A stretch of 64,000 nt of DNA from Terriglobia bacterium (GTDB lineage Bacteria; Acidobacteriota; Terriglobia; 20CM-2-55-15). The notes beneath the pieces are model-generated. The model made no database searches. It was not told the origin of the DNA and was given only the letters and a program-made list of their open reading frames with translations. The position numbers and the translations under genes are program-made. This document shows positions 16,073 through 38,044 of the stretch, piece after piece. The stretch lies in NCBI GenBank assembly GCA_965218585.1, contig CBDCLE010000019.1, positions 64,001 to 128,000 on the forward strand, in the 5' to 3' direction. Each line of letters opens with the position of its first letter. Within the stretch, counting starts at the first letter, position 1.

Positions 16073-16864
16073 TCACGCGGAGCCTTCGGCGGACCGGGGT
16101 TTCTTCTTCCGCTTGTTGGCGGCACCGAGACTCTCGGTGAACCGGATGCTTTCCCAATCGAACTGATGAATCGCGCAGTGATGGGTCAATCGGTCCAACA
16201 GGGCCGCGGTCAGGGCGGCATCGCCGAACACGCTGGTCCACTGCGCAAACGGCAGGTTCGACGTCACGATGAGGGAACCCTTTTCGTACCGGTCCGAGAA
16301 GACCTGAAACAGCAACTGGGCACCCTCGGCCGAGAACGGGATATAGCCGACCTCGTCGACGATGAGCAGCTCGAAGCGGGACAACTTCGCCAGTTGCTGC
16401 TTCAACTGTCGCTCCTCACGGGACTCGATCAGCGAATTGACCCGCCCCGCGGCCGTGGTGAACCCGACGCGGTAGCCCCTCCGGCAGGCTTCCACGCCCC
16501 ACACCGTCGCGGCGTGAGTCTTGCCGGTGCCGTGCTTGCCCAACAACACAACGTTCTCGCACCGGGTGATGGTGTCGCACTCGGCATAGTCGCGCACCTG
16601 GACCGCATCCAGTGCCGGCCACTTGTTCAGGTCGGTCGTTTCCAGGGTTTTCAACCGTGGGAACCGGGCCGTGCGCAACCGGCGCTGGATCTGATTGGCT
16701 TGCCGCTGTTCCAACTCACGACTGGCCAGAGCCAGCAGAAAGCCGGGGTACCCCTCGCCGGCTTCCTTGGCCTGCCGGCCGTATTCCCGCCAGGCACGGA
16801 CCATGGCCGGCAACCGGAGCTGCCGCAATGCGTCGTCCAGGACCACCTCCTGACCCGGAGTCAT
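16073..16864 (-). CDS. istB: IstB AAA+ ATPase
   Basis: GKHGTGKT Walker [25 protein letters not shown]. Confidence 0.95.
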   Translation of the reverse strand: MTPGQEVVLDDALRQLRLPAMVRAWREYGRQAKEAGEGYPGFLLALASRELEQRQANQIQRRLRTARFPRLKTLETTDLNKWPALDAVQVRDYAECDTITRCENVVLLGKHGTGKTHAATVWGVEACRRGYRVGFTTAAGRVNSLIESREERQLKQQLAKLSRFELLIVDEVGYIPFSAEGAQLLFQVFSDRYEKGSLIVTSNLPFAQWTSVFGDAALTAALLDRLTHHCAIHQFDWESIRFTESLGAANKRKKKPRSAEGSA

Positions 16865-18390
16865 CGCACACCTCCAGCCAACAGGTCGTATCGATTCAGA
16901 TCGGTTCCGGCAATCGCCCGGTCCGTGATCCCGGGCATCAGTCCGGACTCAAGCGGGGCATGGGATCGGGCGGGCGCGTCCTCCCGCATCAGAATGTGCC
17001 GCACCGCTTCCAGTTCGGCGCAGTGGGCATCGAGCGCATCCTGGACGGCGGCCGACACCCGGCCCAGATCCCAGTCCTGGTGGAGTTGCAGGATGCTGAT
17101 GAACTCCCGGGTGCCCCGGCTGTACCCATGCCGGTCCCGCAACCGCTCCAGCACCGTCTCGTAATGGGCCGGCCACTGGGGCCGCCACTGCCGGATCGGG
17201 CGGGCACTCTCAAACGAGGCCACCTTCCGCCGGATCAACTCCAGGTAGTGCAACGGATCGGTCCGCCAGTCGCTATGACCGAAGGCGCGGGCATGTTCGG
17301 CCACCTTCTTCTGGTCCGCGTAAAAGCTCACCCGGTCACAGCCGATATGGGCCCAGAGCCGGCGTCCCACATACGCGGTCGGCACCGAGTAGCGGTTCGA
17401 ATCCACCTGGGCGGCCTGGTACCGGCTGATCCGCACGCCCACCACCTTCGTGTTTTCGAATGGCGTCTCGGGCAGCGCCAACAGGCGCTCTTTCTCGACC
17501 GCGTGCCGTTCCCCGATCGTGCGGGCGTCGGCCCGGCCGCCGATCCGGCGCTGCTCGTCGGTCGCGCAGCGTTCCAGCAGCTGCGCGTTCAGTTCCTCGA
17601 AGTCGGCCACCTCGGGAATCGGCACCAGGAAATTCCGGCGTGCGAAACCGATCAGGCCCTCGACACCACCTTTCTCCTGGCCCCGGGCCGGATTACAGAA
17701 CCGCGCTTCAAAGGTGTAGTGGGCTCGTAACGCCGTGAACCGGTCCTGCTCGATCCGGGCCTTCCCCCTCAGAATCCGCCTCACAGCTGTCTTCAGGTTA
17801 TCGAAGACCACGGCCGGGAATACGCCGCCGTACCAGCCGAACGCCCGGATGTGACCGTCCAGGAACATCGCCTGCCGTTCCCGCGGATACGCCCGCACGA
17901 ACGACTTGCCCGAGTACCGGCTCCGCATGCAGAACAGTTTGACCTGAACGTCTTCACCCTTCATCCGGACCCAGCCCGTCCCCCAGTCCACTTCCGCTTC
18001 CCGCGCCTGTTCCGGATCCAGCGGCACCACCGCCCCCGGCCGGTGCCAGCCCAAACGCATCTTCCGCTCCCGGACCCATCGCCGCACCGTCGGCTCGGCT
18101 CCGGTGAACCCATGTTCATCGACCAGGCGCCGCCATACCCGGTGCGCCGTGTGCCGCTGCTTGACCGGCTGCTCCCGATCGGCCCGCAGCCAGCCCTCCA
18201 CGATCCCGGCCACCGGGTCCATCACCGGACAGGCCGGCTCCTTCTCCCGCCGATACTTCGGCTCCTGGCCGGCCAATACTTTCCGGACCGTCCGTCTCGT
18301 GTGCCCGGTCTCCCGGGCGATCTGTCGAATGCTTTTCTTGTAAACTCGATGTGCGGTCCTGACCATCTCGTACTGATCCATCCCTAACAA
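16861..18390 (-). CDS. istA: IstA DDE transposase
   Basis: N-terminal HTH, EVDWG, VFDNLKTAV, EKGGVE, NRYSVP. Confidence 0.95.
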   Translation of the reverse strand: MLGMDQYEMVRTAHRVYKKSIRQIARETGHTRRTVRKVLAGQEPKYRREKEPACPVMDPVAGIVEGWLRADREQPVKQRHTAHRVWRRLVDEHGFTGAEPTVRRWVRERKMRLGWHRPGAVVPLDPEQAREAEVDWGTGWVRMKGEDVQVKLFCMRSRYSGKSFVRAYPRERQAMFLDGHIRAFGWYGGVFPAVVFDNLKTAVRRILRGKARIEQDRFTALRAHYTFEARFCNPARGQEKGGVEGLIGFARRNFLVPIPEVADFEELNAQLLERCATDEQRRIGGRADARTIGERHAVEKERLLALPETPFENTKVVGVRISRYQAAQVDSNRYSVPTAYVGRRLWAHIGCDRVSFYADQKKVAEHARAFGHSDWRTDPLHYLELIRRKVASFESARPIRQWRPQWPAHYETVLERLRDRHGYSRGTREFISILQLHQDWDLGRVSAAVQDALDAHCAELEAVRHILMREDAPARSHAPLESGLMPGITDRAIAGTDLNRYDLLAGGVR

Positions 18391-18479
18391 CTCCTTATCC
18401 TCCCTCCGCCATGCCGGTTCATCCAGGCACTCGCCGGGGGAGGCTATCAGGGTGAGTCCTTTTTACGTTATCGAAATCA

Positions 18480-18727: not shown

Positions 18728-18778
18728 GAGGAACCCTCCTTGCGGGGGTCGGCACCCGCCACACTCTTTACTCAGATT

Positions 18779-19138
18779 TCAACAGTTTTGCGGACACAAC
18801 GACACAACCTGGCCCTCGGGCAGGGTGATCATGCGAATGAGCCCAGAGAGAGAGCCGTCCCTGGCGCGACTGGCTTCCACCGTCACAGTCTCGCCGATGG
18901 CGTTCTCGAAATCGCTCTTATCGGCGCCCGCGAACGACCACGTTTCCACCAGCCCCTGGTCGCTCGTCACGTCGACGAACAAGTAGATGTGCGGATTCCT
19001 CCAGTCGAGCTCGGTGAGCGTGCCGATCCGTGTGAATCGCTGGTCAAAGTCGAAGACTACCGACATATTGTGGTGCGCCCATGCCGATCCCGTGACAATG
19101 ACGGCAAGAGCAATGGAAGCAAACATGCGCTTTTTCAT
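18779..19138 (-). CDS. DUF6152-family secreted OB-fold-like protein
   Basis: Signal peptide AWA-HH, FD, GTLTELDWRNPH, GETVTV. Confidence 0.75.
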   Translation of the reverse strand: MKKRMFASIALAVIVTGSAWAHHNMSVVFDFDQRFTRIGTLTELDWRNPHIYLFVDVTSDQGLVETWSFAGADKSDFENAIGETVTVEASRARDGSLSGLIRMITLPEGQVVSLCPQNC

Positions 19139-19164
19139 GCGGTGCTCCTGTGCCTATGCCACGC

Positions 19165-19245
19165 TCCTCGGCCCAGATTCTTCCATAGCACCCGCACCTA
19201 GCTGCTCGTGGATCTCATAGGGACCGAGTTTGGTGCCGATTCCAT
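19165..19245 (-). pseudogene. Short remnant of a Ser/Thr protein kinase N-terminus
   Basis: Minus strand reads ATG GA(A) ATC GGC ACC AAA CTC GGT CCC TAT GAG ATC... = (ME)IGTKLGPYEIHEQLGAGAM, matching the kinase start pattern GTxLGPYEIxxxLGAGGMG. Confidence 0.6.
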
Positions 19246-19652
19246 CGTTTTGGTGTGTCGTTAACTGGACCGTGAAATTCTCTGTAAATTCAACTACAGG
19301 TGGGGTTTATTAGCAAGAAAACTGTCAACGCTTGGTAATTCGCGCAATTCTCAACGTCCGACAAGATGATTTATCAGGACTTGAGGATGGATTCGTACGG
19401 ATAGCCGGTTATACAGGCAAGTGACTCGCATCGGGACTGGGATTTCCAGAAACCGCTTCTGGCCCCTTGAGTTGCACGAATCCTAAACACTAGGCGACAT
19501 TTCGTTACCGAATCGTTGCGGACTTCAAACAAGAAGGTTTGCGGGCGGAGTGCCACCCACTAAAGGCACCAACACCCGTACCAAAACCAGTTTGATGCCT
19601 TCGTAGTAAATTGCGAATTGTCCAGACCGATCAGACTCTGGACGTGTTTCGA

Positions 19653-21278
19653 CTAGAAATTGAACAGGTTCGTGAACTTGACGATCAACGCTCGCTCGAC
19701 GACCTGCCCGTTGTCGGCCGAACGTCGGTCGTTGTAGTATGTTGAAGCGGAGATTGGAGCTCACCTCGTCCCGTTCGGCGTTGTACTGGATAAAGGCATT
19801 AAAAAATGCACGTGCCGTGAACGCATATACGAACCGCAGGCCCAACGGGTCGGTTGTAAAGCTTCCGCGGGTCAAATCCACCTGGTTGCGTGCGTAATTC
19901 ACGTCAACGTTGACGCGATAGTTCGGTTTTACGCTTAAATTGGCCGTAAATGATTCGCTCTCCCCGTCCCAGAACTTGCCCCACTCGACGCTGCCGCCTC
20001 CACTGATCTTCCTGCTCGAATCGCTCGAGGCACTGACCCTCTGCCTCCGGTACACATAGTCCCCCTCGGGAATGAGAATCCCCGGACGGATCCGAAACAC
20101 ACGGTTCAATCGTTCGAACCTTTCGGTTAACGTGTAATTGATCGAGGCGCCGTTCTGAAAGCGAATCCCCAGGTTCAGGTTCTGGGTTCGCGTTTCGACC
20201 TGTTCGGTCGTACCGTCTTCAAAATACTCCAGAGTCGTCCCGAAGATCAGATTTCGAACCGAGCGACTGCTTCGGATGAGCGGATTGAAAGAAAACTCTC
20301 CCGTGTACTTGGTTGCGTTCGGACGACGGACGAAACCGACTTCTGGATTGAAGTTCGTCTGGATAGCGTCGTAGGCTCCGGCAATGACCAGTTCGTCGTC
20401 GCGCCAGCCCGCAGCGAACTTCCGGGCCTGATCCTTCCCTCCAGACCCGGCGTGTCGGTCTTAAGAACGTATGCATCGAAATTGAGCCGGTTCGAGAACT
20501 GAAAAAATGCATCGACGCCGAAGAGCCGATTGTAGTCGCCTGTTACGGTGGAGTCGCGGTTGGTAACAATGCCCCCGACCCAGGAGTTCCTCAGGAGGTT
20601 CTGCTTCACCCGACCGACCGTATAGGTGTTCGACGGCGTCGACCCGGTCGACGCCGTCTTCATCGTCAGGAACCCGACGTCGTAACGGCCCACCTGACCC
20701 GTGACCCGTGCTCCGCCTACAATCGGAATCGGAGTTCCCTGGGCACTGAGACCGATCCGCCGGCTGAAGAAGGGAACGAGATCGTTTCGGAAGCTCCGAC
20801 CCTGGCCACCTCCCAGGTTGAAGGTACCGGCGTTCTCAAGAAAGAACTCTCTTTTTTCTGGGAAGAAGAGGTTGAAGCGGGTGAGATTGACCTGCTGCTG
20901 GTCCACCTCGACCTGTGCGAAATCGGTCCGATACGTCGCATCCAGCGTCAACGACTGAGTTAACCCGTATTTGACGTCCACTCCCCCGTCGTAATCCTGA
21001 TCTGTAACCCAATCCCCGAACGGATTACCGCCGGATCGCGTCTGGGTAAATCCCGCTATTGCGAACGGCTTTACTTTCAGATTCCGGCCCGGCCGGATGT
21101 TTTCAATACCTCTCAACGTACCCGCCATCGAGACGCGCGTGGTCTGAAAGCGTCGCGGTATGGGTGACCAGTTGCTCTCATCATTAATGCGCCGAACAGT
21201 CCGCAGCATGTTGAGACCCCATTCCTGCGACGACGCGTTGGAGAATCGCAACGTGTTGAACGGGATCTGGAACTCGAC
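19653..21278 (-). pseudogene. DUF5916-family outer-membrane protein pseudogene, 5'-truncated by IS21 #2
   Basis: VEFQIPFNTLRF, TDFAQVEVDQQQVNLTRFNLFFPEKREFFLENAG, FFSRRIGL, C-terminal VKFTNLFNF*; split over several frames; paralogous to 44949-47153. Confidence 0.85.
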
Positions 21279-21385
21279 TGTTGATTTGCACCCAAAACTG
21301 ATCCACTTAAAGCGGGTATTTGCATCGAAATTTGACCCACGTGTATACCCATTCCTGCCGATTAACAGAGCAGGAGGGCAAAGGA

Positions 21386-22777
21386 GTGATAGACGTGGCG
21401 ATATTGAGTGTGATCAGACGCTGGCATGTACGAGAGGGCGTATCGATTCGAGAGATCAGCAGGCGAACGAAGCTGTCGCGCAATACGATCCGGAAGCACT
21501 TGGCGAGCGGCGCTCTGGAGGCGGTCTATCCGAAGCGCAGGAGCCGGAGCAAAGTGGACGGCTACGCCGAGTTGCTGGCGTCGTGGCTGAAGCGGGAATC
21601 GGCCCGGGGTCGCAAGGAGCGGCGTAATCTCAAACAGCTGCACGGCGAGTTGATGAAGCTTGGCTACACGGGGTCCTATGACCGTGTGGCGGCGTTTGCG
21701 CGGGTATGGCGGCGCCAACAGCAAGAAGCCTCGAAGGTGAGCCGGGACACGTTCGTGCCGCTGGTGTTTGCGCCCGGCGAAGCGTTCCAGTTCGACTGGA
21801 GCGAGGACTGGGTGGTCATCGGCGGTGAACGCACGAAGCTGATGGTGGCGCAGTTCAAACTCTGCCACAGCCGGGCGTTCATGCTGCCCCAGGTGGTCAA
21901 CGCCCGGTTCAAGGCGATGGTGAGCCATTTCCTGTTCGAAGCGGAGTTCTGCACGCCTGGCGCCGGATGGGAGAAAGGCCAGATCGAGAAGAACGTCCGG
22001 GACGCGCGGCCCCGTCTGTTCCATGACGCGCCTGAGTTTGCTGGCTTCCGTGACGTGAACGTGTGGCTTGAGCGGCGATGCCGGGGTCTCTGGGACGAGA
22101 TCCATCACCCGGAGCAGCCCCAGCGTACAGTCGCCGAGGTCTGGGCCGATGAGCACGCGCATCTGATGCGCATGCCGACGCCGTTCGATGGCTTTGTCGA
22201 GCACACCAAGCGTGTTTCTCCGGCCTGCCTTATCGCCTTCGCGCGTAATCGCTACAGCGTGCCGGCCGCGTTTGCCAACCGGCCGGTCAGTGTCCGCGTC
22301 TACGCCGAACGCATCGTGATTGCCGCCGAAGGCCAGGTCATCGCTGAGCATCCGCGGGTGATCGCGCGCGGGCGCGACTGCCGGTCAGGGCGAACCGTCT
22401 ACGACTGGCGCCACTACCTGAGCGTCCTCCAACGAAAACCGGGCGCGTTGAGGAACGGCGCTCCCTTCGCCGAGCTTCCCCAACCTTTCAAGCGCCTCCA
22501 GGCGGCGCGGCTCAAGCGACCTGGCGGGGACCGGGAGATGGTGGAGATCCTGGCGCTGGTGCTGCACCACGATGAGCCGGCGGTGCTGCGTGCCGCCGAG
22601 ATCGCACTCGCAGCCGGGGCCGCCTCCAAGCAACATGTGCTCAATATCCTGAGCCGGTTACTGGAAGCCTCGCCGCCCAGCCTCATCGATATACCCGATG
22701 CGTTGACACTGCTCAATGAACCGAAGGCCGATGTTCATCGCTACGACCGCTTGAGAGGAGATGGCCATGTCATCTGA
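21386..22777 (+). pseudogene. istA: IstA transposase with an in-frame internal deletion (~44 aa) removing the DN catalytic segment
   Basis: FQFDWS, GWEKGQIE and NRYSVP are present; SRAFML joins directly to PQVVNARF, whereas the other IstA here has AYP...FDNLKTAV...GK at this position. Confidence 0.85.
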
Positions 22778-23540
22778 ATCTCTGGTCAGCGCGCTGAGGT
22801 CGCTCAAACTCCATGGCATGGCGCAAGCGGTCGATGAACTCGCGCGGCAAGGCGCTCCGGCTTTCTCAAACATAGAGCCCATGCTCCACACCTTAACCGA
22901 GGCCGAGGTCGCCGAGCGCGAGGTCCGCTCCATCAACTACCAGATGAGGACCGCCCGCTTCCCAGCCTATCGCGACCTCTCCAACTTCGACTTCAATGAA
23001 AGCCCCGTTGATGAGGCACTGCTCAGCTCACTGTATCGATGTGACTTCGTCGCCGACGCTCACAACATCGTGATGATCGGCGGACCGGGCACCGGCAAGA
23101 CCCATCTCGCCACGGCCATCGGCGTGCAGGCCATCACTCACCATCGCCTCAGAGTCCGGTTCTTCTCCACTATCGAACTCGTCAACACGCTGGAACAGGA
23201 GAAAGCCAAGGGTAAGACTGGGCAGATCGCCAACCGGCTCCTGCAAGTCGATTTGGTCATTCTCGATGAACTCGGCTATCTGCCGTTCTCGCAGGCCGGC
23301 GGCGCCTTGCTGTTCCACCTGCTGAGCAAACTCTACGAGCGCACCCGCAGGGTCCTCACCACCAACCTTGCCTTCGGTGAATGGCCCCGGGTCTTCAACG
23401 ACACGAAGATGACCGCCGCGCTGCTCGACCGCCTCACCCACCATTGCCACATCGTCGAAACCGGCAATGACAGTTACCGTTTTAGAAACAGTTCCACACA
23501 CACAAAGGAGACTAAACCCCGGAAAAACCCCAACCCATGA
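22761..23540 (+). CDS. istB: IstB AAA+ ATPase
   Basis: [46 protein letters not shown]. Confidence 0.95.
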
Positions 23541-23613
23541 GCCATAATCCGGCTCTCTAACCCGGGTCAATTTTCAATGCAAAACCCGGATCACTTTTCC
23601 GTGCAAATTAACA

Positions 23614-23753
23614 AAGCCGGGATAGGAAGGGGTCGTGGGCGCGGATTCCTGTCTCCACTCTCCGGCAACCACGTCGAGAGTTGAAAAAAAACCAATCAGA
23701 AATAGGGACACGCCGAGGACGGCGCCGCCAAAAAGCAAGGTTTTGGAGTATCT
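23614..23753 (-). pseudogene. N-terminal (signal/TM) fragment of the gene following the barrel gene, cut by IS21 #2
   Basis: MRYSKTLLFGGAVLGVSLFLIGFF... starts about 25 bp after the barrel stop and runs into the IS right end. Confidence 0.5.
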
Positions 23754-23778
23754 CATTGAGCGTTCCGCCCGCAATATA

Positions 23779-26006
23779 TCAGAAAGTCAGTTCAGCCTCG
23801 AAGAAGGTCGATATCAAAGATTTCGACGTATAAATGTCGCGGAACCCCTTACCTGGTATCAGGGTCGCGACGCCTCCTGTAAAGATGATGTTGTTGTTCA
23901 ACCAGGGGCGGTATTCAGCTCCGATGCTGAACTCCGGCCCGATGAAGCGTTCGATGTCCGATTGAAAAAGCACTGCTTCGAAGACTTCGGTGTGAACGAA
24001 CGAAAGGACGTTCAGATTCGCCGAGGCCTTCCATTTGGGCGTCAATTCGGCATCGATTCCAGCGTTGAAGATCATCAGCCCGGGATTGACGAAATTGGCC
24101 TGCCCTTCGTCTTTCGAACTCCTGAGACTGGGGTTCAGACTGAAGCGCTGATTGAGAGCCACGGCGGTACCCGTGAGCCGGATCTCCTGACGGTTCCACA
24201 AGCTCACGCCTCCGCCGGCAAAGAAAGGGACATCGACGATGCTGTCGAAGCCACGGGAGCGATTGTCGCGAAGATTGTCGTCACCGGAGGCAAAGTAGAA
24301 GGAACCCTTGTACCTCCTCCAGTCGCGGTCTATGGACACCTCCAACGCCACCATCTGTGCATTGATGTCGGAGTCGACGGGTCCAAAGAAATCCCCAGCG
24401 ATCTGATTGGGCCGCTCCTTCCCCAGGACCTGGTAAAACGCGTGGTTTACGTTCCAAACGCCGAAATGTCCGTCACCTGCCCACCCCAGATACGCAGCGT
24501 TGATGCTTTTGGGAACGACGTTCGAAATCGGGGCCGGCCGGACCAGGAGATCGTTCTCGTTGAAATGAACGCTGGGGAGATCGTTGTTGAAGTGAACGCT
24601 GAACTGGGCGGTGTAACCCTCCTTGACGAAATCCTGGATGTAGTAGTTGGCAACCATGACGTGTTGACGGCGCCAGTCGAATGTGTTGAGAAGGCTGTTG
24701 GTGTCCTTCTCCATCATGTAGAAGTAGGCGAGGTTGTACTGGTGCTTGTTCGACTTGAGGTTGCCGAAGAAACGGATACCGGGCTGATTGTCGAGAAACA
24801 CGAAGCCTCTGAAATCGCTGTTGAAGAACTGGGTGCCGGCTCGGACGGATAGAAAATCGAAGAAAGGACTGGTTTCGGCCAGCCTGACTTCGACGAAAGC
24901 CTCTTCGAGGGAACTGTGGACGTCATTTCGGGTTGTGCCTCTCCTGATGTCAACGTTGACCAGCCCAAGTTCCTCGACGTTCAGGTAGTTGTAATTCACG
25001 GCCGGTGTGAAACGAAAGCGCAGATCGAACGGTCTGAACTGCGTATAGCCGCGAAACAGATCCGCCGTAAACTCAAACTGCTGCACCAACTGGAACTGAT
25101 CGCCGCGACTGAAAAACCCGGGCTCACCGGGACGCTGGGAGCTGGGGGGCCGGCCACCGGAAGGCTTCGATATTCGGCTATGGTTTCGCTCCGGCCCTCG
25201 AGGGCCAGGAACCAGTTGCTCCCCAGAATCGGGTAGTCGCCTTTGAGGACGTTTAAATTGTAAGGGTCGATGGGACTTCCGGTAACGAAAGGATACGTCT
25301 CGCTGAGCGAGGTCCCATAGCGGTCCCATCTCGGAAAACCGATACGCCAGCGATCGTCCACGAGGACGAAGTCCAGACTGGCTATGCTCGTCGCCGCTCC
25401 GCCTCCGGCATTACCCAGCGGCAGAAACCGAGGCGCCACTCCAGGGAGACTGCGCGTAGCTTCCAGGGGCACTTCCTCTGGCCTCGGGCGAACGGCCGGA
25501 GTGGGAGGAAAGGACTCGGGATCCTCCAATACGGCGGGGCTATCCGCTGGCTGCCGGCGCCTTGGACGGGGCGTGAGTCCGACTGTGTCGGGTGTCGGGA
25601 TTTCTACGCTCAGAGTCAGTTCCTGTCCTGCCTCCAGGCGGAATCGTTGAGGCAAGCTCTGCCGTGCCGGTCCCTCGAGGATGGATGCGACCAGCAGGTA
25701 CTCGCCAGCGGGAAGTCCGGTAATCAGAAACTGGCCGTCCCTATCAGAGACCGTCCCAAAAGTAAGCTCTGTGGCTTCCAGGCTGGCGATCAACTGAACC
25801 CGCGCGAGGGGACGCCCGACCTGGTCTGTGACCTGGCCGGCAACGTTCCCAAGTAGGGAAGCCGGCGCCTGTTCGGGTCTTCGAATCTGGGCCGTGGATT
25901 CTGTCGGCAACCAGACGCACCCCCACACACACCCTGCCAAGAGCAGACAGAACAAGGCCGGGCTTACCCTTTTCCGGCACAGGAACCCAATCATTGAGCT
26001 TTTCAC
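23779..26006 (-). pseudogene. Outer-membrane beta-barrel-like protein with an N-terminal carboxypeptidase-regulatory-like domain; one frameshift at a G6 run near 25145
   Basis: Signal peptide, GQVTDQVG.PL..TVSDRDGQF.ITGLPAGEYLL, Pro/Arg linker, amphipathic strands rich in F/Y/W/N, terminal EAELTF; the frameshift may be a homopolymer error. Confidence 0.7.
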
Positions 26007-27794
26007 CTACTCGGATTGCGATTGAACTTCAGATAGGGGAGTCTTGCCCTGTCTATGATTACCCGATCTGCCAGGATTTCGGCGGGTGCCTCAAAGCCGG
26101 TGGCTCCACCCGCCGAGACGACGTCATCCTGTTCCACCCCGTCCCCGCTGATTCCGAGTCCTCCGACCAGTTGGCCATTCTTGTAGAGCGGCACGCTTCC
26201 CGGAAAGAAGACTACGCCATTCGTGTTCGGCGGATTTCGATCGTCGAATCCCTGTGAGCAAGGGTTGGCCAGATCGTATACGAACAGATCGAAGAAAGGT
26301 CCGGCCGAACTGCCGCTGATACCGGGAGGGTATAAGGGTTGGCTGCCGAAATTGATGGTTCGGTTCGTGACCGCGGTAAGAGGAGGTACCTCGAGGAGAT
26401 CTCCTTCCTTCCCGTCTTCCCCCTCCTCCCCGGCCCTCGCCGCCCGTTCGGGACCACTGAAGTAGACCACGTTGCGGGACTTGGCCACGGCTACATCGAT
26501 GCTGAAGACGGTGGCATCCGGCATCCGGTACAGGCCTAGTAGATTACCGTCCAGGTCCGAGACCGCTATCACCATCCGGGTTCGACTTCCCAGAGGCAAC
26601 CGAATCGCCGCCCGCGTCTGTTCGGCCGTTCGAATGGACTGAAGGATGATCCGTTCGACTTCATCCGGACCGAGAAGCAGGCTGCCACGTGGTCGGTCCG
26701 GGCCTCCGACCAACCATCCTTCGGCAGCACCCTTTCCGGGACGAATGAATATATTTCCACCCGGGTCTTTGTCGAGGGCAAGATACTCTCCACCCAGACC
26801 GCCTGGTTGGGTGAACAGAGGCTGCCGCGTGTTCCGTACAAAGGGCAGGCGGATTCCGTCCACGAAAACGGCAAACGGCGGCCCCACGCAGGCTCCGGGA
26901 CCAAAAACCAACGTCCCCCGGGGAGCGATGCTGGCCACGAGAGCGGCGAATTCTGCATGATCGGGAGGAGGGCCAAAAACGCCAACGCCGCCGACCAGCC
27001 TGCAGTCCTTGAAAATGGGAATGCCGCCTCCATGAACCTGTGCGGGAAAGGAATCAGACTTCTCTTCCTCGGCTACGTCGACCAGTCGCCCGTCTTCAAA
27101 GCGACCCGTGTATTTGCCGGTATAGGGTCCCAGCCGCAACCCTCCCGTGATTCTCCATTGCAGGGCAAACGATCATCAGACTCGCCAGCAAGAAGGCCGG
27201 CATTGACCTGGTTTCTGACCTGGAGTTCCCGGAGAGACGTGGCGCGAGGAACACACTTACCGGGATTGAAAGCCACGTTGAAAGCACAGCCGCGGTTGGT
27301 GTTCTCGATGCCGTAGAGCGCTCCGTTGGGAAGGAAGTCGATGCCGGGCGGGAAGTTCTTCTGGCTGATGAAGCGAACCGTTCGTGAAGAAAGAGGCGCC
27401 TAATCGTTACTGAAAAAGCCACCGGTTCGAGCCAACGCAACAGCCCGCTCGGAATTCTCGAAAGTGGAGAGAGTCTTTTGCCAGACTGCCAGAATGTGCC
27501 CCGCGCGATCGGTGACTGCCACCGAAAACCCTTGAGAATCGAGAGCCCGAACTGCCGCCTGGATAATCGTATCGATCTCGTCGGTCGAAAGTCCCGCGGG
27601 GTCGTCGGGCGCATCGCAGAAATCATCAGACAGTATTTCGAGATTGGCGCGGAGAGACCGATCGGGATCGTTCACGCTCTGACCCGGACCTGGGCCGGCA
27701 GGGCTTGGCTCGCCAGAACCGGGAGAAAAGCGGTCGCAAGAATCAGGCATAGAAGTCGCGCGGATGGCAGCAAGGTCCGTCTGTGATTCGACAT
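26003..27794 (-). pseudogene. Secreted protein with two GlcG/HbpS (heme-binding-like) domains; frameshifts near 27680 and 27135 and an in-frame TAG at 27400-27402
   Basis: Signal MSNHRRTLL..LCLILATAFL from ATG 27794; domain 1 SVAVTDRAG...GGIPIFKDCRLVGGVGVFG; domain 2 IAVSDLDG..AVAKSR...PGSVPLYKNGQLVGGLGISG. Confidence 0.78.
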
Positions 27795-27811
27795 CGCGGT
27801 ATTATCTACCA

Positions 27812-29170
27812 ATGGTTCCACCCCCGCAAGAAGGTCGACTCGCCCAGTCGCGGCGATGTTTGAGGGTAGCCAACACCAGGCGATTCAGCCTATTTATCGT
27901 GCTGTTCGCGCTCTGGTCATCGCCCCGGGGCCTCGAGGCACAGCAACTGGATAACGTCCTGGGTGTCTCCAGTTGCGCCACCTCGGCGTGTCACGGGTCG
28001 GCCATTCCACGCACACAAACGAGAATCCTACGCAACGAGTTCCGCACCTGGCTGGAAGAAGACTCTCATTCGGATGCTTACGACGTACTGCTCGGGGAAG
28101 ATTCCAGGCAGATCATTCGGAACCTGCAAGGCTTCGGTTCGCCGATTGAATCCGCCGAGACCAGTGCGGTATGTCTGGACTGCCACGCCACCAGCCAGGA
28201 TCGGTCACACGTCACCGACGGTGTATCGTGCGAATCCTGTCACGGAGGGGCCCGAGCCTGGATCGATCGCCACGACGAAGTCTCTTCGCCGGAAGAGGCA
28301 TTGGCGTTGGGCATGGTCCCGACATGGGAACCGGAAACACGAGCCGATGTCTGCTTGTCGTGCCACCTTGGAACAGAGGAACAATTCGTGACTCACGAGA
28401 TCATGGCTGCAGGACATCCGCGACTTGCTTTCGAACTCGAGACCTTCACGTATCGCCAGCCAGCCCACTTCTCTGGCCCGGAAACCGGCTCATACTCAGA
28501 GAGAAAGCCGGAATCGGCTGACAGCGGCCGGGTCTGGGCCATCGGCCAGGGCGTCCACCTGAGAAACTATGCGCGCCTTCTAAGCTCTTCTCCGGGTGAA
28601 TCCAGGTGGCCCGAGTTCGCCAAGTTCGATTGCTTCAGCTGCCACCAGGCTGTGGAGCGGGACCAGGGACCGCCCGAACCCCCAACTGTCGGTTCGGGGC
28701 TTCTTGCTCTGAATCGTTCGAGCGCGCTGATGTTCCGCGAGGTGATCGCCGTTCTGGACCCGGAACATCTCGAGAGTCTCGATGTTCAGATGGACAGTCT
28801 TGATCAAGCTCTGGCCGAGCCAGGGAGCGAACTTCGCCGAGTCGGGGAAAGCATCGTCGAGATCGTCTCGGCCGATCTGGGGCACATCGCCACCCGGGAG
28901 TGGGACCGGAGTGACCTGCTGGCCCTTCTCGACCGTCTGACCTCTCCCCGGCTGGCAGCTACTTACCGAACGTACGCCGATGCGGAACAGGTCACGATGG
29001 CGGTTCAGGCCCTTGTGGCGGGACTAGAGAACGATCAGGTACCGGACCAGTTGAACCCGGCCCTGAGGTCTTTGACGTCCCTGTTCGAGGCAACCACCGA
29101 CGAGTTTGCTTTTCGAATAGGGGCTTTTCGGGAAAACCTCGCAGATTTCCGTCGATCTCTACCTCCCTAG
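27812..29170 (+). CDS. Periplasmic multiheme cytochrome c (c554-like), 5 heme motifs; start uncertain
   Basis: Signal ending LEA-Q; CATSACH (CX4CH), CLDCH, GVSCESCHG, CLSCH, CFSCH; helical C-terminal domain. Confidence 0.88.
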   Translation: MVPPPQEGRLAQSRRCLRVANTRRFSLFIVLFALWSSPRGLEAQQLDNVLGVSSCATSACHGSAIPRTQTRILRNEFRTWLEEDSHSDAYDVLLGEDSRQIIRNLQGFGSPIESAETSAVCLDCHATSQDRSHVTDGVSCESCHGGARAWIDRHDEVSSPEEALALGMVPTWEPETRADVCLSCHLGTEEQFVTHEIMAAGHPRLAFELETFTYRQPAHFSGPETGSYSERKPESADSGRVWAIGQGVHLRNYARLLSSSPGESRWPEFAKFDCFSCHQAVERDQGPPEPPTVGSGLLALNRSSALMFREVIAVLDPEHLESLDVQMDSLDQALAEPGSELRRVGESIVEIVSADLGHIATREWDRSDLLALLDRLTSPRLAATYRTYADAEQVTMAVQALVAGLENDQVPDQLNPALRSLTSLFEATTDEFAFRIGAFRENLADFRRSLPP

Positions 29171-29209
29171 GACCGAGGAGGGCCAAGCTCAAAGAACCGC
29201 ACGTGCGAA

Positions 29210-31236
29210 TTACTCGGAGCGGAGAAGGCCGTATCTGGGCCGATGAAAGCTATGGCAGAGTACGCACGGGGAAGTCACGCGCTGTGCGCTGGGTGTGGCG
29301 CCAGTGTGGCATTCCAGGCAAAGTTGGATCTGGGGCAACAGCAGGGCGGAATCAGCTTCGGCCTCACTCACACCGCTGTGGCAATCCTCGCATTCCGAGA
29401 TTGAATCGTGGGCCTGGTGGCTGAAGACGGCGGCCGGCATCCAGCCGATGCCTTCGGTAGAGGGCACCGGGGTGAGGCGCTCGACTTCGGCGATTTCGCC
29501 GGTCCCACTGACGGTGTGACATTCCACGCACACGCCTTCGCTTCCCAGCAGCCTGTCCAGCGCGCGAGCGGTTCGTTCTTCGGCCCAGGCCACCAGACCC
29601 AGCCTCTCCACTTCGCTGATCTCTCGACCCGGTCGACGGCGAGCGGGTAGCGGCGCCTCCGGGTCGCGTGCTTCGCCTTCCAGGGCCAGTGCCGAATAGA
29701 ACTGGAACGTGCTTGCCGATACGAGGACGACTTCTTCATGAGGAGCCTCGTCATCTTCATGGAGGGCGTCAAACGCGAGCGAATGACAGCTCTGGCAGTC
29801 TCTCTCAAAAAGAGTCGGCATCATGGTGGTCCCGGCAGGTTCCGGCCGGTGGCAGTCTCGACACTCCAACTGGATGTCCTGGTCCCGGGCATCCTTGATC
29901 GGCCATCAAGGTGAGACTCGTGCGCGAATGGGACACCGGATCGGACCAGAGGGAGGTCTCCTCCCTGCGGAACGCGTTCACGCTGCCCGCTGTCCACATC
30001 GATTGTTGCCGAGGGACGGAATGCAGGGTGACTGGTGGCAAAGTCGCCGGCGTCGAGCAGATCGGTCGCAGCAAACACCGAAGCCAGACCGGAGTGACAG
30101 CCCTCACACGTGGTGTCGCTGACCGAGGCCAGGGCACGAATCTCGTTGTGCTCCAGATGGCAGGACGTGCATTGCTGTTCCGCTAAGATTTCCACAACCT
30201 CGTTCGCGCGCGAGGAATGCGTACCGATACTCGGATGGCAGTCTAGACATGCAACCTCTGGGACTGACCGAAAAACGTTGATGTGACATGTTTCGCAATC
30301 ATCTGCGAAGTACTGATGCGAAGGAGCCAGTGGACCCGGATTCCAGCTTCGAGTCAGGGAGTTGTTCCCGAGGAAGTTGCCGCTCGATCCACTCTGGCTC
30401 AAAGGCAGCACCAGGAAACCCCAAAACACAGCAAGGCCCAACACCCAGGACAGCCGTCTCCGCGTCAGCAGGAGGCCCGAGATTCCCAGCTTCGTCCGCT
30501 TTTCGAGTTCTTCAGCCGCATGGCCCTGGGATTCGATCTTCTCGATTTCCAGCGCAAGATCCTCGCCCTTAGCGGGTTCAACGACACGGAGTTCGTGATG
30601 GCCGATGCGAACAAGTGTGCCCGGATTGAGGACTTGAGGCGCCGTCTTGAAATGACCGTTGACAGTGAAGTGATCGCCTTCCAGCAGATCCAGGCGCACC
30701 TGGCCCCGGAAGATCTCCATTTTGGCGTGATTGAGTGCGACCGACAGTTCCGGAATATATTCCTCGTCGATATCGGCGATATTCCCGAGGAGCGCGGCTA
30801 TCTTCTGACCGGACCGATTCTCGGTCATGGATTCCGGAATGAAGCTGTAGAAAAGAACCCCTCCTATACCCGAAAGAATCACCAGCGACATCAGAACATA
30901 GGCCAGCGTGTGGACGTTCCAGCCGAACTGGAAGCCGCTGTGAAGCGGCACCAACACCAGGAGCACTAGACCCAGGTAAACGTGAGCCGAGAGCCAGCCT
31001 CGTAGCGGCGCACTCGGAACCTTGTAGTAAGTGCGTTTTCGGACTCCGAACCACATGAGCCAGATCATCATGCCGAACGAAACCGTGCCCAGCAGATAGC
31101 CAAACCCCGTACCGCCGTTGTGTCCGCCGACTGGGGTATAGACCGCGTAACCTGCGAGCGCCACTCCAAGCAGCAGAAGCGCAGTCTTGAGATAGCGGAA
31201 TCCCCTGTATACCCAGAATGCCTCGTGCAGGATCAT
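29210..31236 (-). pseudogene. Fusion of a 4-TM His-containing membrane domain, an FHA-like segment, a TM and a decaheme cytochrome c; frameshift near 29900
   Basis: WLSAHVYLG..LHSGF..VHTL; SVALNHA...FTVNG...IGHHELRV; CxxCH x10 (CETCH, CLDCH, CTSCH, CEGCH, CRDCH, CQSCH, CVECH, CEDCH, CLECH, CVLCH). Confidence 0.82.
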
Positions 31237-33714
31237 GTCTCGAGCGACTCCTCCATGACCTTCTCGACATACTCGGTAGGATCAACCCTCAGGACCGCTC
31301 CTGTTGGACAGGATTCTACGCATGCGGCCCGCTTACCGTTTGCACCGGGCCCTGCGGGAAGGTTCGAACAAAGGTCGCACTTTACGGTCAGTTTTTTTCT
31401 TCCTCGCTCCCCGCCGTTCGAGCCTCTCCAGCACCAAAGAAGAGACGCATGAGGAGATTGGGCGGGGGCGTCGGATCAACGGCGGCCATCTGGATCACGT
31501 CATAGGGACAGTTCGTCGCACAGTTTCCGCAACCAATGCAGTTGTCCATGATGTAGACTTCGCCGCTCGGTTTGCGACGGATCGCGTCGGGCGGGCAGTC
31601 CATCATGCACTTGGGATTCTCGCAGTGGCGACAGGAGGTCGGGATGTGCAGGGTGGCAAAAGTCGGCCCGGCCTCGCGGTCAAGACGTGACACACCACCA
31701 TGAGTCCCGGCGCAAGCCTTTTCGCAGTTGTCGCAACGGATGCAGAGCGACTCGTCTACGAGCAGAATGTCTGTGGCTTCACCGGCTCCCGCTTCCATCA
31801 GGAACTCGACGATGCCTCCGGCCCGCCGGTCGGAACTGCGAAGAGCGTTTTCGATCAAACGCTCGTTGGCCGTCTTCTTCTGCTCCCGATGGATTTCGGG
31901 GTGACGTTCATGAAAGCTGGCGATTGTGCGGGCAGGCAGACGGATGGTTTCGGTCAGGACGCTTGCCTGAACCGTCGCGTTTCTCCTGGCATCCGGAGCA
32001 AAGAAGGCCATCTCGCCGACCACGTTGCCCGCAGGAAGGTAGGCCAGGACCTGCCTCTCCTGATCCTTCAATCGCCAGACCGTCACCGATCCCCGGCGAA
32101 TCAGATGTAAACCGTTGTTGGGATCGCCCTCGTGGAAGAGTTCTTCTCCCTTCTTATAGGTTTCCACCATCTCTTATAGGTTTCCACCATCGCCTGAGCC
32201 GCTAACTCCTGCAGTTCTTCCACCAGCACATCCGGCGCCAGCCCGGTCTGGAGTTTCCTGCGAACGAATACCTCATCGATTATGTTGTCCACTTCCGGCA
32301 CCGAACTCTTCAGCCTGATCATCGATAAGCGCGGCGTCTCGATCAGAACGCACTGGTCCCCGGCAATCACTGTCGAGGATCTCCTACGGCCGGAGATCAA
32401 GCTCATCTCGCCAAAGAACTCGCCTTCCCCCAGAACGAATTTTTGCTGCGTGGGTAGGGAGTCGGGGAGCCGGTCGATGTCGGTGTCGGCATCGGAGGGC
32501 GGTGCCACGATCTGGACCCTGCCTCGCAGGATGGAATAGAAGCTATCGCTGTAATCATTGCGCTCGAATATGACCTCGCCTTCCGAAGGGGAGTGAATCG
32601 TCGAGTCCACAAGAAACTCGCGGAGCTGAATCCGGGTGATGTTACTGAAGATGGGAAGCTTCCGACCGATCTCTTCAAGAATGGAATCAACGCTTACCTC
32701 GAGAGTCCCGAAAACGTTTTCTAGTAGAGGCTCGTCAGCGGGAGTCACTGGATTTCCCAGTATCTGCTCAACGACTTCGTAGCCCTGGTTAACGCAGTTC
32801 TTGATCAGCGGATAGCCGGCCACAGCACCGATCAGATACAGGCCGGCCACGTTGGACTCATAACGGTCCGAGATGACGGGCGCGGCGGCCGGGTCCGGTG
32901 TAGGGAACTCGATGTTCAGACTCTCCAGAAATTTGCGGGGAGCGACGGCTCCCAGTCGACCAATGACGAGACTCGCCTCCACCCGCACCTCGCCGTCAGA
33001 CGTCTCCAGAACAATGTGATCCTCCTCGATCCTCTTGGGTCGTGAGGTGGGATAGTGGGTGATCTCACCCGACTCGATAGCCGCTTCAATCAGAGCACGG
33101 TTCTTCGGTTTCGCCTTGGGAAACTCCTCGCCCCGGTTAACAATCGAAACGTCGTTCTGTTGGGCCAGAGCCAGCGCGTTTTCGATACCCGCATCGCCGA
33201 CTCCGACGACGACGATTTGCCGGCCTTGGAACGCCGCCGGATCGTCAAGCTGGTACGCGACATGGGGCCGTCCCTGGCCCGGCACTCCGAACTTGCGCAA
33301 GTTGCCCTGGACACCAAAGGCAAGAACTGCGTTTCTGGACTTCAGGCGTTCGCCGTTCTTCAGGATCAGGGTGAAGAGGCCATCAGAAGTCTCGAGACCT
33401 GCGAGTTCGACACCCGGATCGCAAACCAGATTCGTTCCTGCTGCCTGGGTTTGCACCCGCCATGTCTCCAGAACCTCTTCCCGACTACCCTCCGCGAAGC
33501 CGAGGGCCATGTCCGAGTGTAACTGAAGCCTGGACGGCTCGGCCATGACCAGCTTGCCTTTCTGATACCGGAAGACCGTTTCGGCAAGGTTTCCCCGCTC
33601 GAGTACGATATGGGAAACGCCTCGTCTGGCTGCCTGGGCACCCGCAGCGAGGCCTGCGGGCCCTCCGCCGACTATAGCAATCTCGAAAGTTTTCTGGATA
33701 TCAGTCTCCTGCAT
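31233..33714 (-). pseudogene. FAD/NAD(P)H oxidoreductase (TrxB/YpdA-like) + two cNMP-binding domains + NrfC/DmsB-like 4x[4Fe-4S] domain; broken at 32152-32191 and near 31395
   Basis: IVGGGPAG, VVGVGDAGIE; FFGEMSLISGRRRSSTV and VVGEMAFF..RRNATV; CIRCDNCEKAC, CRHCENPKC..DCP, CIGCGNCATNCP, KCDLC..ACVESCP; restored stop overlaps the next ATG (ATGA 31233-31236). Confidence 0.88.
32152..32191. repeat. Perfect 20-bp tandem duplication TCTTATAGGTTTCCACCATC x2
   Basis: Units at 32152-32171 and 32172-32191; causes the frameshift (MVETYK appears in both ORFs). Confidence 0.95.
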
Positions 33715-36441: not shown

Positions 36442-38044
36442 ATGAACCCTAAAATGGGCCGGCGGACCTTTGTCCGGATGGCCGGCACGGCCGGAGCCGT
36501 CCTGGCCTCCGGGGGATGGGAACTCGCACACGGACAACAAGGGACCGCACTTGCGGCGCCAGGGCCGGATGCCGGAGAACGCGAACTGGTTTTGCTTGCC
36601 TTGGACGCCATCAAATCGGCCGGCGCCGCCTATGCCGACGTTCGGATTACCAGGCGGGATTGGGAATCGGTCAACACGCGTGAAAGACAGATCACCAGCG
36701 TCAACAACAACGAAAGTTATGGAATCGGGGTGCGGGCGCTCGTCGGAGGCTCCTGGGGATTTGCAGCAACTCAGGACCTCAGTGAAGCTGCTGTCGTCAG
36801 GGCCGCACGCGAAGCTGCGGCTGTGGCAGCCGCGAATGACCGTATCAATCCTGTCGAGACTGTCCTCGCTCCTGTCGAGGTCGTCGCCGACGGACGCTGG
36901 ATCACTCCGTACGAAATAGATCCCCTGGCGGTGTCGATCGAAGAAAAGGCCGAGCTGCTCTTCCGAACCAACGAGGAAGCCTTGAAAGTCGATGGCGTTC
37001 GCTTCGTAACGTCCGGCGTTTCCTCAGTGAGAGAAAGTCGATTGCTCGGTACAACAGACGGTTCGATGATTCAGCAGACTTTCTTCCGATTGCTTCCCTA
37101 CGTCAACGTTACTGCTGTTTCGAGCGATAATTCTGATTTTCAGAACCGGGATGCGGCGCTCTCACCTATGGGCAGCGGCTGGGAATATATTGTCGACCTT
37201 CAGCTACCCGAAAACGCTCTCCGCTGGGCCGAAGAGGCTGCGCGAAAGCTGACGGCCCCATCGGTAGAGCCCGGGGAATGGGATCTGGTCCTGGACCCGT
37301 CCCATTTGTGGCTGACGCTCCACGAATCGATCGGTCATCCGACGGAACTGGACCGTGCGGTGGGCTATGAGGCCAACTACGCAGGGACTTCCTTCCTCTC
37401 GCCACCTGAAGACGTTCTCAACAAATTCCAATACGGTCCGGAGTTCATGAACGTCGTTGGCAACCGAACCGAACTGGGTGGGTGCGCCACCTGCGGATGG
37501 GACGATGAAGGCGTTCCCGCAGGCAACTGGCCGATGATCGATAAAGGAATCTTCCGTCAACTACCAGACAACCCGCGAGTCGGCAGCGTGGATCTCGGAT
37601 CTAACGAACGTTTCAGACAGCCTGGGATGTTCCTATGGAGAGGGTTGGTGGGCTGTTCCCTTCCAGCGGATGCCGAACATCAGCCTGATGCCTAACGAAG
37701 AAAACATCAGCGAGGAGGAAGTCATCGCGGCAACCGATCGCGGAATCTATATCGAAGGGCGGGGCTCCTACTCGATCGACCAGCAGCGGTACAACTTTCA
37801 GTTTGGTGGGCAGAGTTTCTGGGAGATACGAGACGGCCGGCGCGGCCGCATGCTTCGCGATGTGGGATATCAGGCGCGCACACCGGACTTCTGGAATTCG
37901 ATGGCCCTGCTGGGAGGAGAACAGACCTACGAACTCGGCGCCACGTTCAACGATGGCAAGGGCCAGCCACCACAGGCCAACGCAGTCTCACATGGATGCC
38001 CGGTTGCCCTGTTCAGAAACGTCAACGTCATCAACACGGCATAA
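36442..38044 (+). pseudogene. tldD: TldD-family metalloprotease with a Tat signal; +1 frameshift near 37555
   Basis: GRRTFVRM twin-arginine, YADVRI, LHESIGHPTELDR, WDDEG; continues in another frame as FVNYQTTRE...QRMPN...GKGQP; could be a sequencing error. Confidence 0.85.

Follow-up and report, generated by a model that had tools for sequence, protein, structure and literature searches.

The 64,000-nucleotide stretch analyzed here (the window; contig CBDCLE010000019.1 of the Terriglobia bacterium assembly GCA_965218585.1, positions 64,001 to 128,000) carries a run of broken redox genes that we read, on balance and with reservations, as the decayed remains of a seven-gene redox system that is conserved elsewhere but not characterized experimentally, in a copy that probably arrived by horizontal transfer. 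In intact clusters elsewhere, a core trio of genes encodes a flavoprotein, a protein with five transmembrane (TM) helices (the 5-TM protein) and a forkhead-associated (FHA) decaheme cytochrome c; in most of them an outer module adds a GlcG/HbpS-like protein, an outer-membrane barrel, a large decaheme protein with LVIVD repeats and often a c554-like cytochrome. In the window, positions 33714..23779 of the minus strand hold five reading units, each in pieces, together with one intact gene on the plus strand (Table 1). The open reading frames (ORFs) and Pfam matches agree with the genes and domains, mostly on the minus strand, that a first-pass annotation had listed from the letters of this stretch, and with its two coupled junctions, an ATG/TGA overlap at 31236..31233 and a 4-nt overlap of the GlcG/HbpS and barrel ORFs at 26003-26006.

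From the domain content, the conservation and the gene fusions described below we infer cofactor binding, a direction of flow, gating and a substrate end as follows. Electrons would pass from reduced nicotinamide adenine dinucleotide or its phosphate, NAD(P)H, to flavin adenine dinucleotide (FAD), then through four [4Fe-4S] clusters and two b hemes to ten c hemes in the periplasm. The entry point would be a soluble cytoplasmic flavoprotein combining an FNR/TrxR-like FAD-NAD(P)H domain without the redox disulfide, two domains of the type that binds cyclic nucleotide monophosphates (cNMP) and a HycB/NrfC-like chain of four iron-sulfur (FeS) clusters. The 5-TM protein would hold the two b hemes stacked across the inner membrane, and the FHA protein would place its FHA domain in the cytoplasm and its decaheme c domain in the periplasm, on either side of one TM helix. 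Cyclic nucleotide and contacts between FHA and phospho-Thr would probably gate or assemble the complex, to judge by the conservation of the motifs. Outward flow is favored on thermodynamic grounds, because electrons from the usual donors in the periplasm would have to move energetically uphill on two counts to reach NAD(P)+, in redox potential and across the membrane potential. The outer module, with its triple GlcG/HbpS protein, barrel of about 18 strands, LVIVD beta-propeller decaheme and often c554-like cytochrome, would form the periplasmic or cell-surface end. Taken to its full length, and put forward tentatively, the system might be a bacterial, envelope-spanning counterpart of NOX (NADPH oxidase) and ferric reductase enzymes, in which a cNMP-gated, FHA-controlled NAD(P)H dehydrogenase feeds a new family of diheme cytochrome b, a 10-heme wire and a periplasmic or surface decaheme-propeller enzyme independently of the quinone pool.

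The flavoprotein belongs to a family of proteins of about 800 residues, and its nearest solved sequences in the PDB are TrxR/YpdA (E = 1e-18), HycB3 (3e-12), HycB (9e-12) and PKA-R. Its scores lie below the NCBIfam cut-offs for TrxR and YpdA (TIGR01292, 53 bits against 343; TIGR04018, 136 against 339.9), and no cysteine of the FAD domain is invariant among the 21 and 24 aligned sequences; thioredoxin reductase and YpdA bacillithiol-disulfide reductase were therefore rejected as identities. The two cNMP_binding (PF00027) domains of the window copy clear the 27.5-bit cut-off, with 48.2 and 66.2 bits. Both phosphate-binding cassettes (GE...R-S-A-T) are conserved: G434, E435 and R442-444 are invariant in the first, with T447 nearly so, and G559, E560, R570 and A572 in the second, with T573 nearly so. 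All 16 cysteines of the four FeS motifs are invariant, and the motifs are of the HycB/NrfC-like four-cluster type (Fer4_11, 34.2 bits against 26.2). In the window, Pfam places Pyr_redox_2/3 and cNMP_binding in ORF 33714..32101, and cNMP_binding with Fer4 motifs in ORF 32170..31388; the fourth Cys motif lies in the third frame, which ends in the TGA of the first coupled junction. Two 928-residue relatives of the flavoprotein (P0055 and P0059) carry FHA domains (PF00498, PF16697) in the same polypeptide, which ties FHA to the flavoprotein in a further way.

The 5-TM protein is a separate gene product of about 280 residues in intact clusters. In an alignment of 31 sequences, three of its histidines never vary (H84, H98 and H108), and two more reach at least 90% conservation (H256 and H270). 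One pair, H84 and H98, stands 14 residues apart on TM3; the other, H256 and H270, has the same spacing on TM5. Such a spacing of paired histidines is expected for two b hemes stacked across a membrane, as in cytochrome b and NOX-type proteins, and because the 5-TM protein has two conserved pairs so spaced it is likely to be a diheme cytochrome b. On the protein of a Binatia locus (L013), the Ni_hydr_CYTB profile (PF01292) scores just below its 30.1-bit cut-off (28.5 bits, E = 1.6e-6), and some homologs carry a precomputed PF01292 assignment. The AlphaFold2 model of the 5-TM protein has a mean predicted local distance difference test score (pLDDT) of 91.

The third core protein starts with an FHA domain, continues with a single TM helix and has 10 CxxCH motifs in almost every full-length copy. 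The FHA domain (PF00498) scores 22.8 and 37.8 bits in orthologs against a cut-off of 20.7, with G42, R43 and H60 at least 90% conserved. In the window, the joined ORFs 31236..29821 and 29869..29210 encode four TM helices that bear histidines, part of an FHA domain, a further TM helix and 10 CxxCH motifs (four from the motif count and six read off the translation), and Pfam finds cytochrome c3/c7-type multiheme motifs in both; the FHA sequence there begins past the Gly-Arg motif and has no Pfam match. The His-bearing multi-TM part and the membrane decaheme of the first-pass annotation are thus both present, but they are the products of two separate genes elsewhere and have been fused here by a deletion. 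The control by cNMP and phospho-Thr that it envisaged is a possibility suggested by the conserved motifs of the flavoprotein and FHA domains.

That the three core proteins act together is suggested most directly by paralogs in which the same domains are differently partitioned. With a 5-TM profile, 54 of the 301 genomes sampled gave matches at E <= 1e-10 (a tally that includes G000 and one unpublished genome, G086, which enters no other result here), and 21 of the 58 match rows lay in open frames of at least 600 residues; at E <= 1e-30 it matched 355 cluster representatives. Four such loci from the same phylum were fetched (L099 to L102), and all four encode a single protein of 815 to 913 residues in which two cNMP domains and four FeS motifs are followed by a C-terminal 5-TM-like domain. 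Adjacent to it in two of the four is a gene for a protein that combines FHA, TM, multiheme c, TM, Fer4 ferredoxin and Pyr_redox flavoprotein parts. Because paralogs fuse the flavoprotein, 5-TM and FHA-heme domains in these other combinations, we take the three to form one complex; such fusions are a classical mark of domains that work as a single machine. The fusion of the FeS domain to a cytochrome-b-like domain would also put the FeS chain on the cytoplasmic side of the cytochrome b. A genome of the same class (L007) has a simpler pair, a 286-residue 5-TM-like protein (3-863) followed by a Zn-ribbon/ferredoxin/Pyr_redox_3 protein (880-2304), with no cNMP domain, FHA domain or c hemes in either. 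Complex prediction gave weak support for contact between the 5-TM protein and the FeS domain, with a score of 0.52 against 0.00 for the best of three controls, agreement between runs in at least 2% of contacts and a partner pLDDT of at least 68. In calibration, the pass mark was reached by 116 of 157 solved complexes and by 2 of 215 mismatched pairs, although only 18 of the 157, along with both mismatched pairs, passed with scores of 0.60 or less.

To see how widely the cluster is conserved, an alignment of 21 flavoprotein members was used to scan a collection with one genome per prokaryotic species. The 728 pattern matches came down to at least 719 stretches encoding flavoprotein relatives, and the analysis covered the best 80 of these, each with flanks of at most 10 kb. 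Many of these 80 loci end at contig ends, and the 27 with full 10-kb flanks therefore give the cleaner picture. The co-occurrence of the genes in other genomes, on which the first-pass reading depended, is seen in both sets. The FHA-heme gene was found in 59 of the 80 by tblastn with the heme C-terminal piece of the window, in 63 by blastp and in all 27 full-flank loci, where it is always adjacent to the flavoprotein gene. The 5-TM gene was found in 59 of the 80 by tblastn with the fused TM/FHA piece, in 57 by blastp with intact orthologs and in 23 of the 27; in the four full-flank loci without a match, the gene order places it past the locus edge. Corresponding counts (tblastn, blastp and full-flank) were 47/80, 48/80 and 20/27 for the GlcG gene, 45/80, 46/80 and 20/27 for the barrel gene, and 31/80, 31/80 and 12/27 for the c554-like gene, and the large seventh gene was present in 43/80 by blastp and in 21/27.

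By their titles, the best 80 loci come mostly from Alpha-, Beta- and Gammaproteobacteria, with four isolates among them; they also include two 'Ca. Sulfotelmatobacter' MAGs (metagenome-assembled genomes), one Verrucomicrobiia MAG and a Binatia MAG, which with 60% identity is the closest of all. The named carriers are mostly MAGs or isolates of Lysobacterales, Nevskiales-like bacteria, Alcanivorax and Burkholderiales. Cultured carriers are Alcanivorax sp. 1008, Stagnimonas aquatica THS-13, Oceanibacterium hippocampi CECT 7691 and Tahibacter aquaticus DSM 21667, the last with the core trio only.

In the outer module, GlcG orthologs are secreted or lipoprotein-type proteins with three HbpS-like stretches (PF03928), so that the double GlcG/HbpS protein of the first-pass annotation matches the two stretches of the window ORF but falls one short of the intact form. 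Their nearest solved sequences, 2a2l (1.1e-5) and EfgA 6bws (3.5e-5), are small ligand-binding GlcG/EfgA proteins. The barrel had been flagged as a protein that might instead model as soluble; the AlphaFold2 model of the ortholog from Alcanivorax sp. 1008, built from 30 aligned sequences (pLDDT 74.9; predicted template modeling score 0.74), is a beta-barrel of about 18 strands, preceded by a disordered N-terminal stretch of 91 residues. Structurally it comes closest to AlgE (PDB 4afk, 3rbh; E = 4e-16, TM-score 0.67 normalized to the target) and next to OprD/Occ channels. The resemblance to AlgE is one of fold: sequence identity is 10-12%, the Pfam family Alginate_exp (PF13372) gave no match at E <= 0.01 in the window pieces or at E <= 0.001 in the ortholog of locus L019, and the genomic context here is cytochromes rather than polysaccharide synthesis. 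ESM Atlas neighbors of the barrel, at a feature similarity of 0.96, are hypothetical proteins, some with CarboxypepD_reg and some with Alginate_exp. The barrel C-termini end in an aromatic residue, and the 516-residue window ORF 25329..23779, ending in AELTF, has no Pfam family. The N-terminal CarboxypepD_reg domain of the window barrel (26006-24996, minus strand) is missing from most orthologs; in the ESM Atlas, its combination with a barrel occurs in clusters commonest in Planctomycetota.

The seventh gene of intact clusters encodes a protein of about 1,250 to 1,300 residues (typically about 1,285) with 10 CxxCH motifs and C-terminal LVIVD repeats (PF08309, 54 and 66.1 bits in orthologs against a cut-off of 20.2). 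The first-pass annotation had seen its stump in the window as a truncated gene and had missed the component itself. No PDB sequence matched the large decaheme better than E = 0.28. The c554-like gene, which in the window lies between the FHA-heme and GlcG genes on the opposite strand, is found in other loci upstream of the flavoprotein or after the large decaheme. Its longest ORF in the window overlaps the GlcG start at 27794, and its true start is probably downstream of that position.

Measured against intact orthologs, the window cluster has at least five frameshifts, spread over four genes, one stop codon and one deletion of about 480 bp. The damage suspected in the first pass is real and comprises the duplication and the T7 run in the flavoprotein gene, the frame changes in the heme domain and barrel, the broken frames and stop of the GlcG gene, and the deletion. 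The closest intact flavoprotein relative (P0001, 763 residues) is 94% identical to the window copy. An intact 5-TM protein (P0123, 279 residues) is 95% identical and aligns to window residues 1-160 only. The deleted stretch encoded the cytoplasmic helical domain, TM5 and its two histidines (H256 and H270), and the first half of the FHA domain, Gly-Arg motif included. Residues 1-160 of the 5-TM protein (TM1-4) now run on, in the same reading frame, into the remaining half of the FHA domain, after which come one TM helix and the decaheme c domain. An ortholog of the large seventh protein, used as a query, gave no tblastn match, either within the window or across the genome, which is 95% complete. 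Without the heme ligands of TM5, a whole FHA domain or the seventh gene, and with four genes frameshifted, the copy cannot work: it is a non-functional pseudogene cluster. None of four genomes of the same genus has an ortholog, and an insertion sequence (IS) of the IS21 family adjoins the cluster, for which reasons we think that the copy was probably acquired horizontally and then decayed. The best named relatives of the Mfd protein, at 64-68% identity, are labeled Terriglobia or Acidobacteria, a lead on the taxonomy of the host. It matters only as an example of loss after acquisition.

Public contigs from other sequencing runs share several of these lesions, and the best-matching ones are from a run (X1) that may be the assembly's own source sample. 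They cover 23750-26860 and 27302-33720 without gaps, including the deletion junction and the barrel frame change, and one record (X1 record 4) spans the 20-nt duplication gap-free, a site that no other run covers. A contig from a different study (X3) has the same T7 stretch as X1, and one from a third study (X4) spans the barrel frame change without a gap. A second run from the same sample as X1 (X2) spans the deletion junction without a gap; one of its contigs, near-identical to the window, has one extra T at 29902, and a contig from a strain 93% identical has one extra T in the T7 run.

The statement in the first-pass annotation that no characterized system has this layout stands insofar as full-text literature searches found no experimental characterization of the system; matches for LVIVD and DUF336 concerned unrelated proteins. 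The core trio, on the other hand, has apparently been described in a 2026 preprint, with its function given as unknown. In Ferrigenium straubiae, an FHA-nonaheme cytochrome c ('NHC') of unknown function adjoins five-TM and [4Fe-4S] proteins (bioRxiv 10.64898/2026.01.22.701106, section 6.3.2). It was expressed under all four conditions tested, inward flow to quinone was proposed for it, and the combination of FHA with multiheme was stated to be previously unreported (bioRxiv 10.64898/2026.01.22.701106). As far as the descriptions can be compared, NHC is laid out like the FHA protein, a single TM helix linking FHA in the cytoplasm to multiheme c in the periplasm; its neighbors are a five-TM and a [4Fe-4S] protein, and its cluster appears to be the core trio. 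The available text of the preprint reports no redox motif in the TM protein and does not mention cNMP, a flavoprotein domain, GlcG, a barrel or an LVIVD decaheme. A 'Forkhead-associated protein' with 10 hemes is also entered for 27 genomes in a Gallionellaceae pangenome table (PMC10734462).

Among enzymes of known function, NOX and ferric reductases and the type-B succinate:quinone oxidoreductases (with their five-helix diheme b anchor) offer one parallel, since in them too a nicotinamide or organic donor in the cytoplasm feeds a flavin, in some cases an FeS chain, and then two stacked b hemes, held by paired histidines 13-14 residues apart on two helices. No membership of these families was detected by sequence or fold, the acceptor here would be a decaheme c domain rather than O2, Fe(III) or quinone, and the FeS chain is of the HycB/NrfC type. 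Geobacter CbcL and the Hmc, Tmc and Qrc complexes of sulfate reducers likewise pair a membrane cytochrome b with periplasmic multiheme c, and Hmc and Tmc also have cytoplasmic FeS subunits and carry electrons across the inner membrane. These systems differ in being tied to quinol or CCG-type FeS proteins and in having no NAD(P)H flavoprotein, cNMP domain or FHA domain; NCBIfam models for HmcA, HmcB, TmcA and QrcA/C score far below their cut-offs in this cluster.

The cytochrome b and decaheme might instead exchange electrons with the quinone pool, either outward, in the manner of a CbcL-like quinol oxidase, or inward from outer-membrane Fe(II) oxidases, with the flavoprotein as a regulator or side branch; we consider this rather unlikely. 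Proteins of the Ni_hydr_CYTB family, to which the 5-TM protein bears a weak similarity, commonly interact with quinones, Geobacter CbcL is itself a diheme b fused to a multiheme c domain, and an FHA-nonaheme protein that links Fe(II) oxidation to quinone reduction has been proposed in Ferrigenium (bioRxiv 10.64898/2026.01.22.701106). The paralogs that fuse FeS to a cytochrome-b-like domain and a flavoprotein to multiheme are nevertheless hard to explain with the flavoprotein off the path. Its gene stands beside the FHA-heme gene in every full-flank locus, and electrons flowing inward from Fe(II) to NAD(P)+ would have to overcome the redox span as well as the membrane potential. A porin-cytochrome conduit in the strict MtrCAB/Pcc sense, in which a multiheme cytochrome threads the barrel and feeds an extracellular decaheme for mineral or electrode reduction, is in our estimate improbable. 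The cluster resembles MtrCAB/Pcc in encoding multiheme c cytochromes with an outer-membrane barrel, the large decaheme perhaps lying at the surface, and 20-21 of the 27 full-flank loci have genes for barrel, large decaheme and periplasmic cytochrome together; the aromatic C-terminal residue of the barrels and a weak match of the large decaheme to the MtrC/MtrF domain II/IV model (16.6 bits against a cut-off of 30) point the same way. The barrel, however, is modeled with about 18 strands where MtrB has about 26, matches AlgE and OprD/Occ rather than MtrB, and lies near Alginate_exp in the ESM Atlas. No MtrA/DmsE-family decaheme was found in the cluster (the best TIGR03508 score, on the c554-like protein, is 23.7 bits against a cut-off of 192.2); the feed is a flavo-FeS protein and a cytochrome b instead of a CymA/NapC quinol dehydrogenase, with cNMP, FHA and GlcG parts added. 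The carrier groups (Lysobacterales, Nevskiales-like bacteria, Alcanivorax and Burkholderiales) are, to our knowledge, not metal reducers. With some 18 strands and a fold like that of AlgE, the barrel would be unlikely to enclose a decaheme in the manner of MtrB, and on its model we read it as a channel for substrate or product. Of the trans-envelope link proposed in the first pass, then, transfer from cytoplasmic NAD(P)H to the periplasm is backed by the diheme His pattern and the paralog fusions, whereas the outer-membrane conduit is not borne out.

Sequencing or assembly might also have broken a cluster that is intact and functional in the living organism, but this we regard as very improbable. 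Two lesions do lie at or near homopolymers (T7 at 31392 and G6 at 25144), the near-identical X2 contig has its extra T exactly at the frame change at 29902, and in this 26-contig assembly a TldD/PmbA-like gene outside the cluster (36442..37695, plus strand) also looks truncated. Long-read homopolymer errors as the full explanation were rejected, given that read errors do not typically produce a perfect 20-nt duplication, a deletion of about 480 bp, a stop codon in frame or a seventh gene lost next to an IS21 element; contigs from two other studies, moreover, carry the T7 allele and the barrel frame change, and long neighboring genes of 1,315, 1,161 and 892 residues are open.

Several results count against our own reading of a decayed copy of an NAD(P)H-fed system. 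The lesions were checked on contigs of low depth (2-4), with the 20-nt duplication seen in X1 alone. The direction of flow is argued from thermodynamics, and the sole paper that discusses the core trio proposes the inward direction, to quinone. The 5-TM protein of Alcanivorax (L048) has no Pfam family, the 5-TM model has no Foldseek match in the PDB at E <= 1e-3 and a best VIA Z of 10.8, to generic helical bundles, and a PDB profile search reached a best E of 0.046. The complex prediction was a weak pass, with a score of 0.08 in one of three runs. The outer module is missing from five full-flank loci of the 27, which have the core trio only, so that the outer and inner modules need not act as one conduit. 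A Pfam search of the flanks (18 loci, 60 ORFs of 139 candidates) gave no recurrent neighbor beyond the cluster and no consistent functional hint; FecR, a Ser/Thr kinase and an FTR1-cytochrome c fusion each occurred once.

If the tentative envelope-spanning path is real, aerobic heterotrophs and iron oxidizers could spend cytoplasmic reducing power on extracellular chemistry on demand, possibly Fe(III) or Mn reduction, superoxide formation or the detoxification of oxidants. The bacterial electron routes out of the cell known to us begin at the quinone pool; one that starts at NAD(P)H and is switched by cyclic nucleotides and phospho-Thr would be a different coupling of metabolism to extracellular redox chemistry. 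The 5-TM protein would gain a concrete, checkable role as a diheme cytochrome b, where the 2026 preprint could not assign one. The family is not rare, with a flavoprotein relative in at least 719 species-level genomes, and its cultured carriers make it directly testable.

Table 1. Genes, lesions and neighboring elements of the window cluster, with the re-partitioned paralogs found in other loci.
Feature	Position	Strand	Basis or remark
Flavoprotein pseudogene	33714..31233	-	Pfam; TrxR/YpdA-like FAD/NAD(P)H domain, two cNMP-binding domains, four Cys4 FeS motifs
Flavoprotein, three frames	33714..32170, 32170..31388, 31394..31233	-	tblastn against intact 824-residue ortholog
Perfect 20-nt tandem duplication	32152-32171 and 32172-32191		Shifts flavoprotein frame; peptide MVETYK in both ORFs
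T7 run (A7 on coding strand)	31392-31398		Second frame change of flavoprotein
Fused 5-TM/FHA-decaheme pseudogene	29210..31236	-	ORFs 31236..29821 and 29869..29210 joined
Junction of ~480-bp deletion	30745..30770, about codon 160, ~30757		P0123 alignment
Heme-domain frame change	~29902	-	tblastn against orthologs
c554-like 'pentaheme' gene	27764..29170	+	Signal peptide; appears intact; one CX4CH and four CxxCH; PF13435 34.4 bits
GlcG/HbpS-like multidomain pseudogene	27794..26003	-	PF03928 75.4 bits (cut-off 25); HbpS-like domains in ORF 27139..26003
GlcG gene, two frame changes and in-frame stop at ~27402	26003..27794	-	Signal peptide, first domain and remainder in three frames
Outer-membrane barrel pseudogene	26006..23779	-	Signal peptide, CarboxypepD_reg (ORF 26006..24996), then barrel; ends ...AELTF
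Barrel frame change	~25150-25170, beside G6 run at 25144	-	tblastn against orthologs
Seventh-gene remnant, ~24 codons, signal-peptide-like	23684..23755	-	Translation; position of the ~1,285-residue decaheme-LVIVD gene in intact clusters
IS21-family element (istA 21320..22777, istB 22761..23540)	21320..23540	+	IstB_IS21 266.4 bits, Mu-transpos_C_2 69.4 bits
HupE_UreJ_2 membrane protein, 452 residues	33701..35059	-	Pfam 142.2 bits; overlaps flavoprotein start by 14 nt
Paralogous re-partitioned genes	L099:2619-5156; L100:2711-5185; L101:852-3299, 3429-6001; L102:1-2608, 2692-5433

The IS21 element abuts the truncated seventh gene, and its adjacent IstA and IstB genes, recognized by Pfam, identify it as IS21; a repeat search of 15500-24000 found no IS terminal repeats and no repeats common to both IS21-like elements of the region. 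The second of these is different and includes an istA at 16861..18390 (window 16073-18390, minus strand); 16001-18000 is the most GC-rich stretch of the window (0.652). Between the two IS elements lies a DUF5916 gene fragment (20247..21251) that matches only positions 7-99 of the 572 of its profile. On the far side of the cluster, the HupE_UreJ_2 gene has no counterpart in any of the 80 related loci and lies outside the conserved cluster; in the Binatia locus, its upstream place is taken by a gene for a fusion of FTR1 iron permease and cytochrome c (L013:7605-9668). The TldD/PmbA-like ORF matches positions 2-87 of 220 of the third-domain profile, has an odd C-terminal tail and probably holds a further frameshift, beyond those of the cluster. 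The 1,315-residue protein (40611-44558, minus strand), encoded some 7 kb away, has two Ser/Thr kinase domains, PDZ and GAF, and in locus L090 a kinase-FGE-sulfatase protein is encoded directly downstream of the core trio. Either kinase could be a source of the phospho-Thr read by FHA, although neither is a conserved neighbor.

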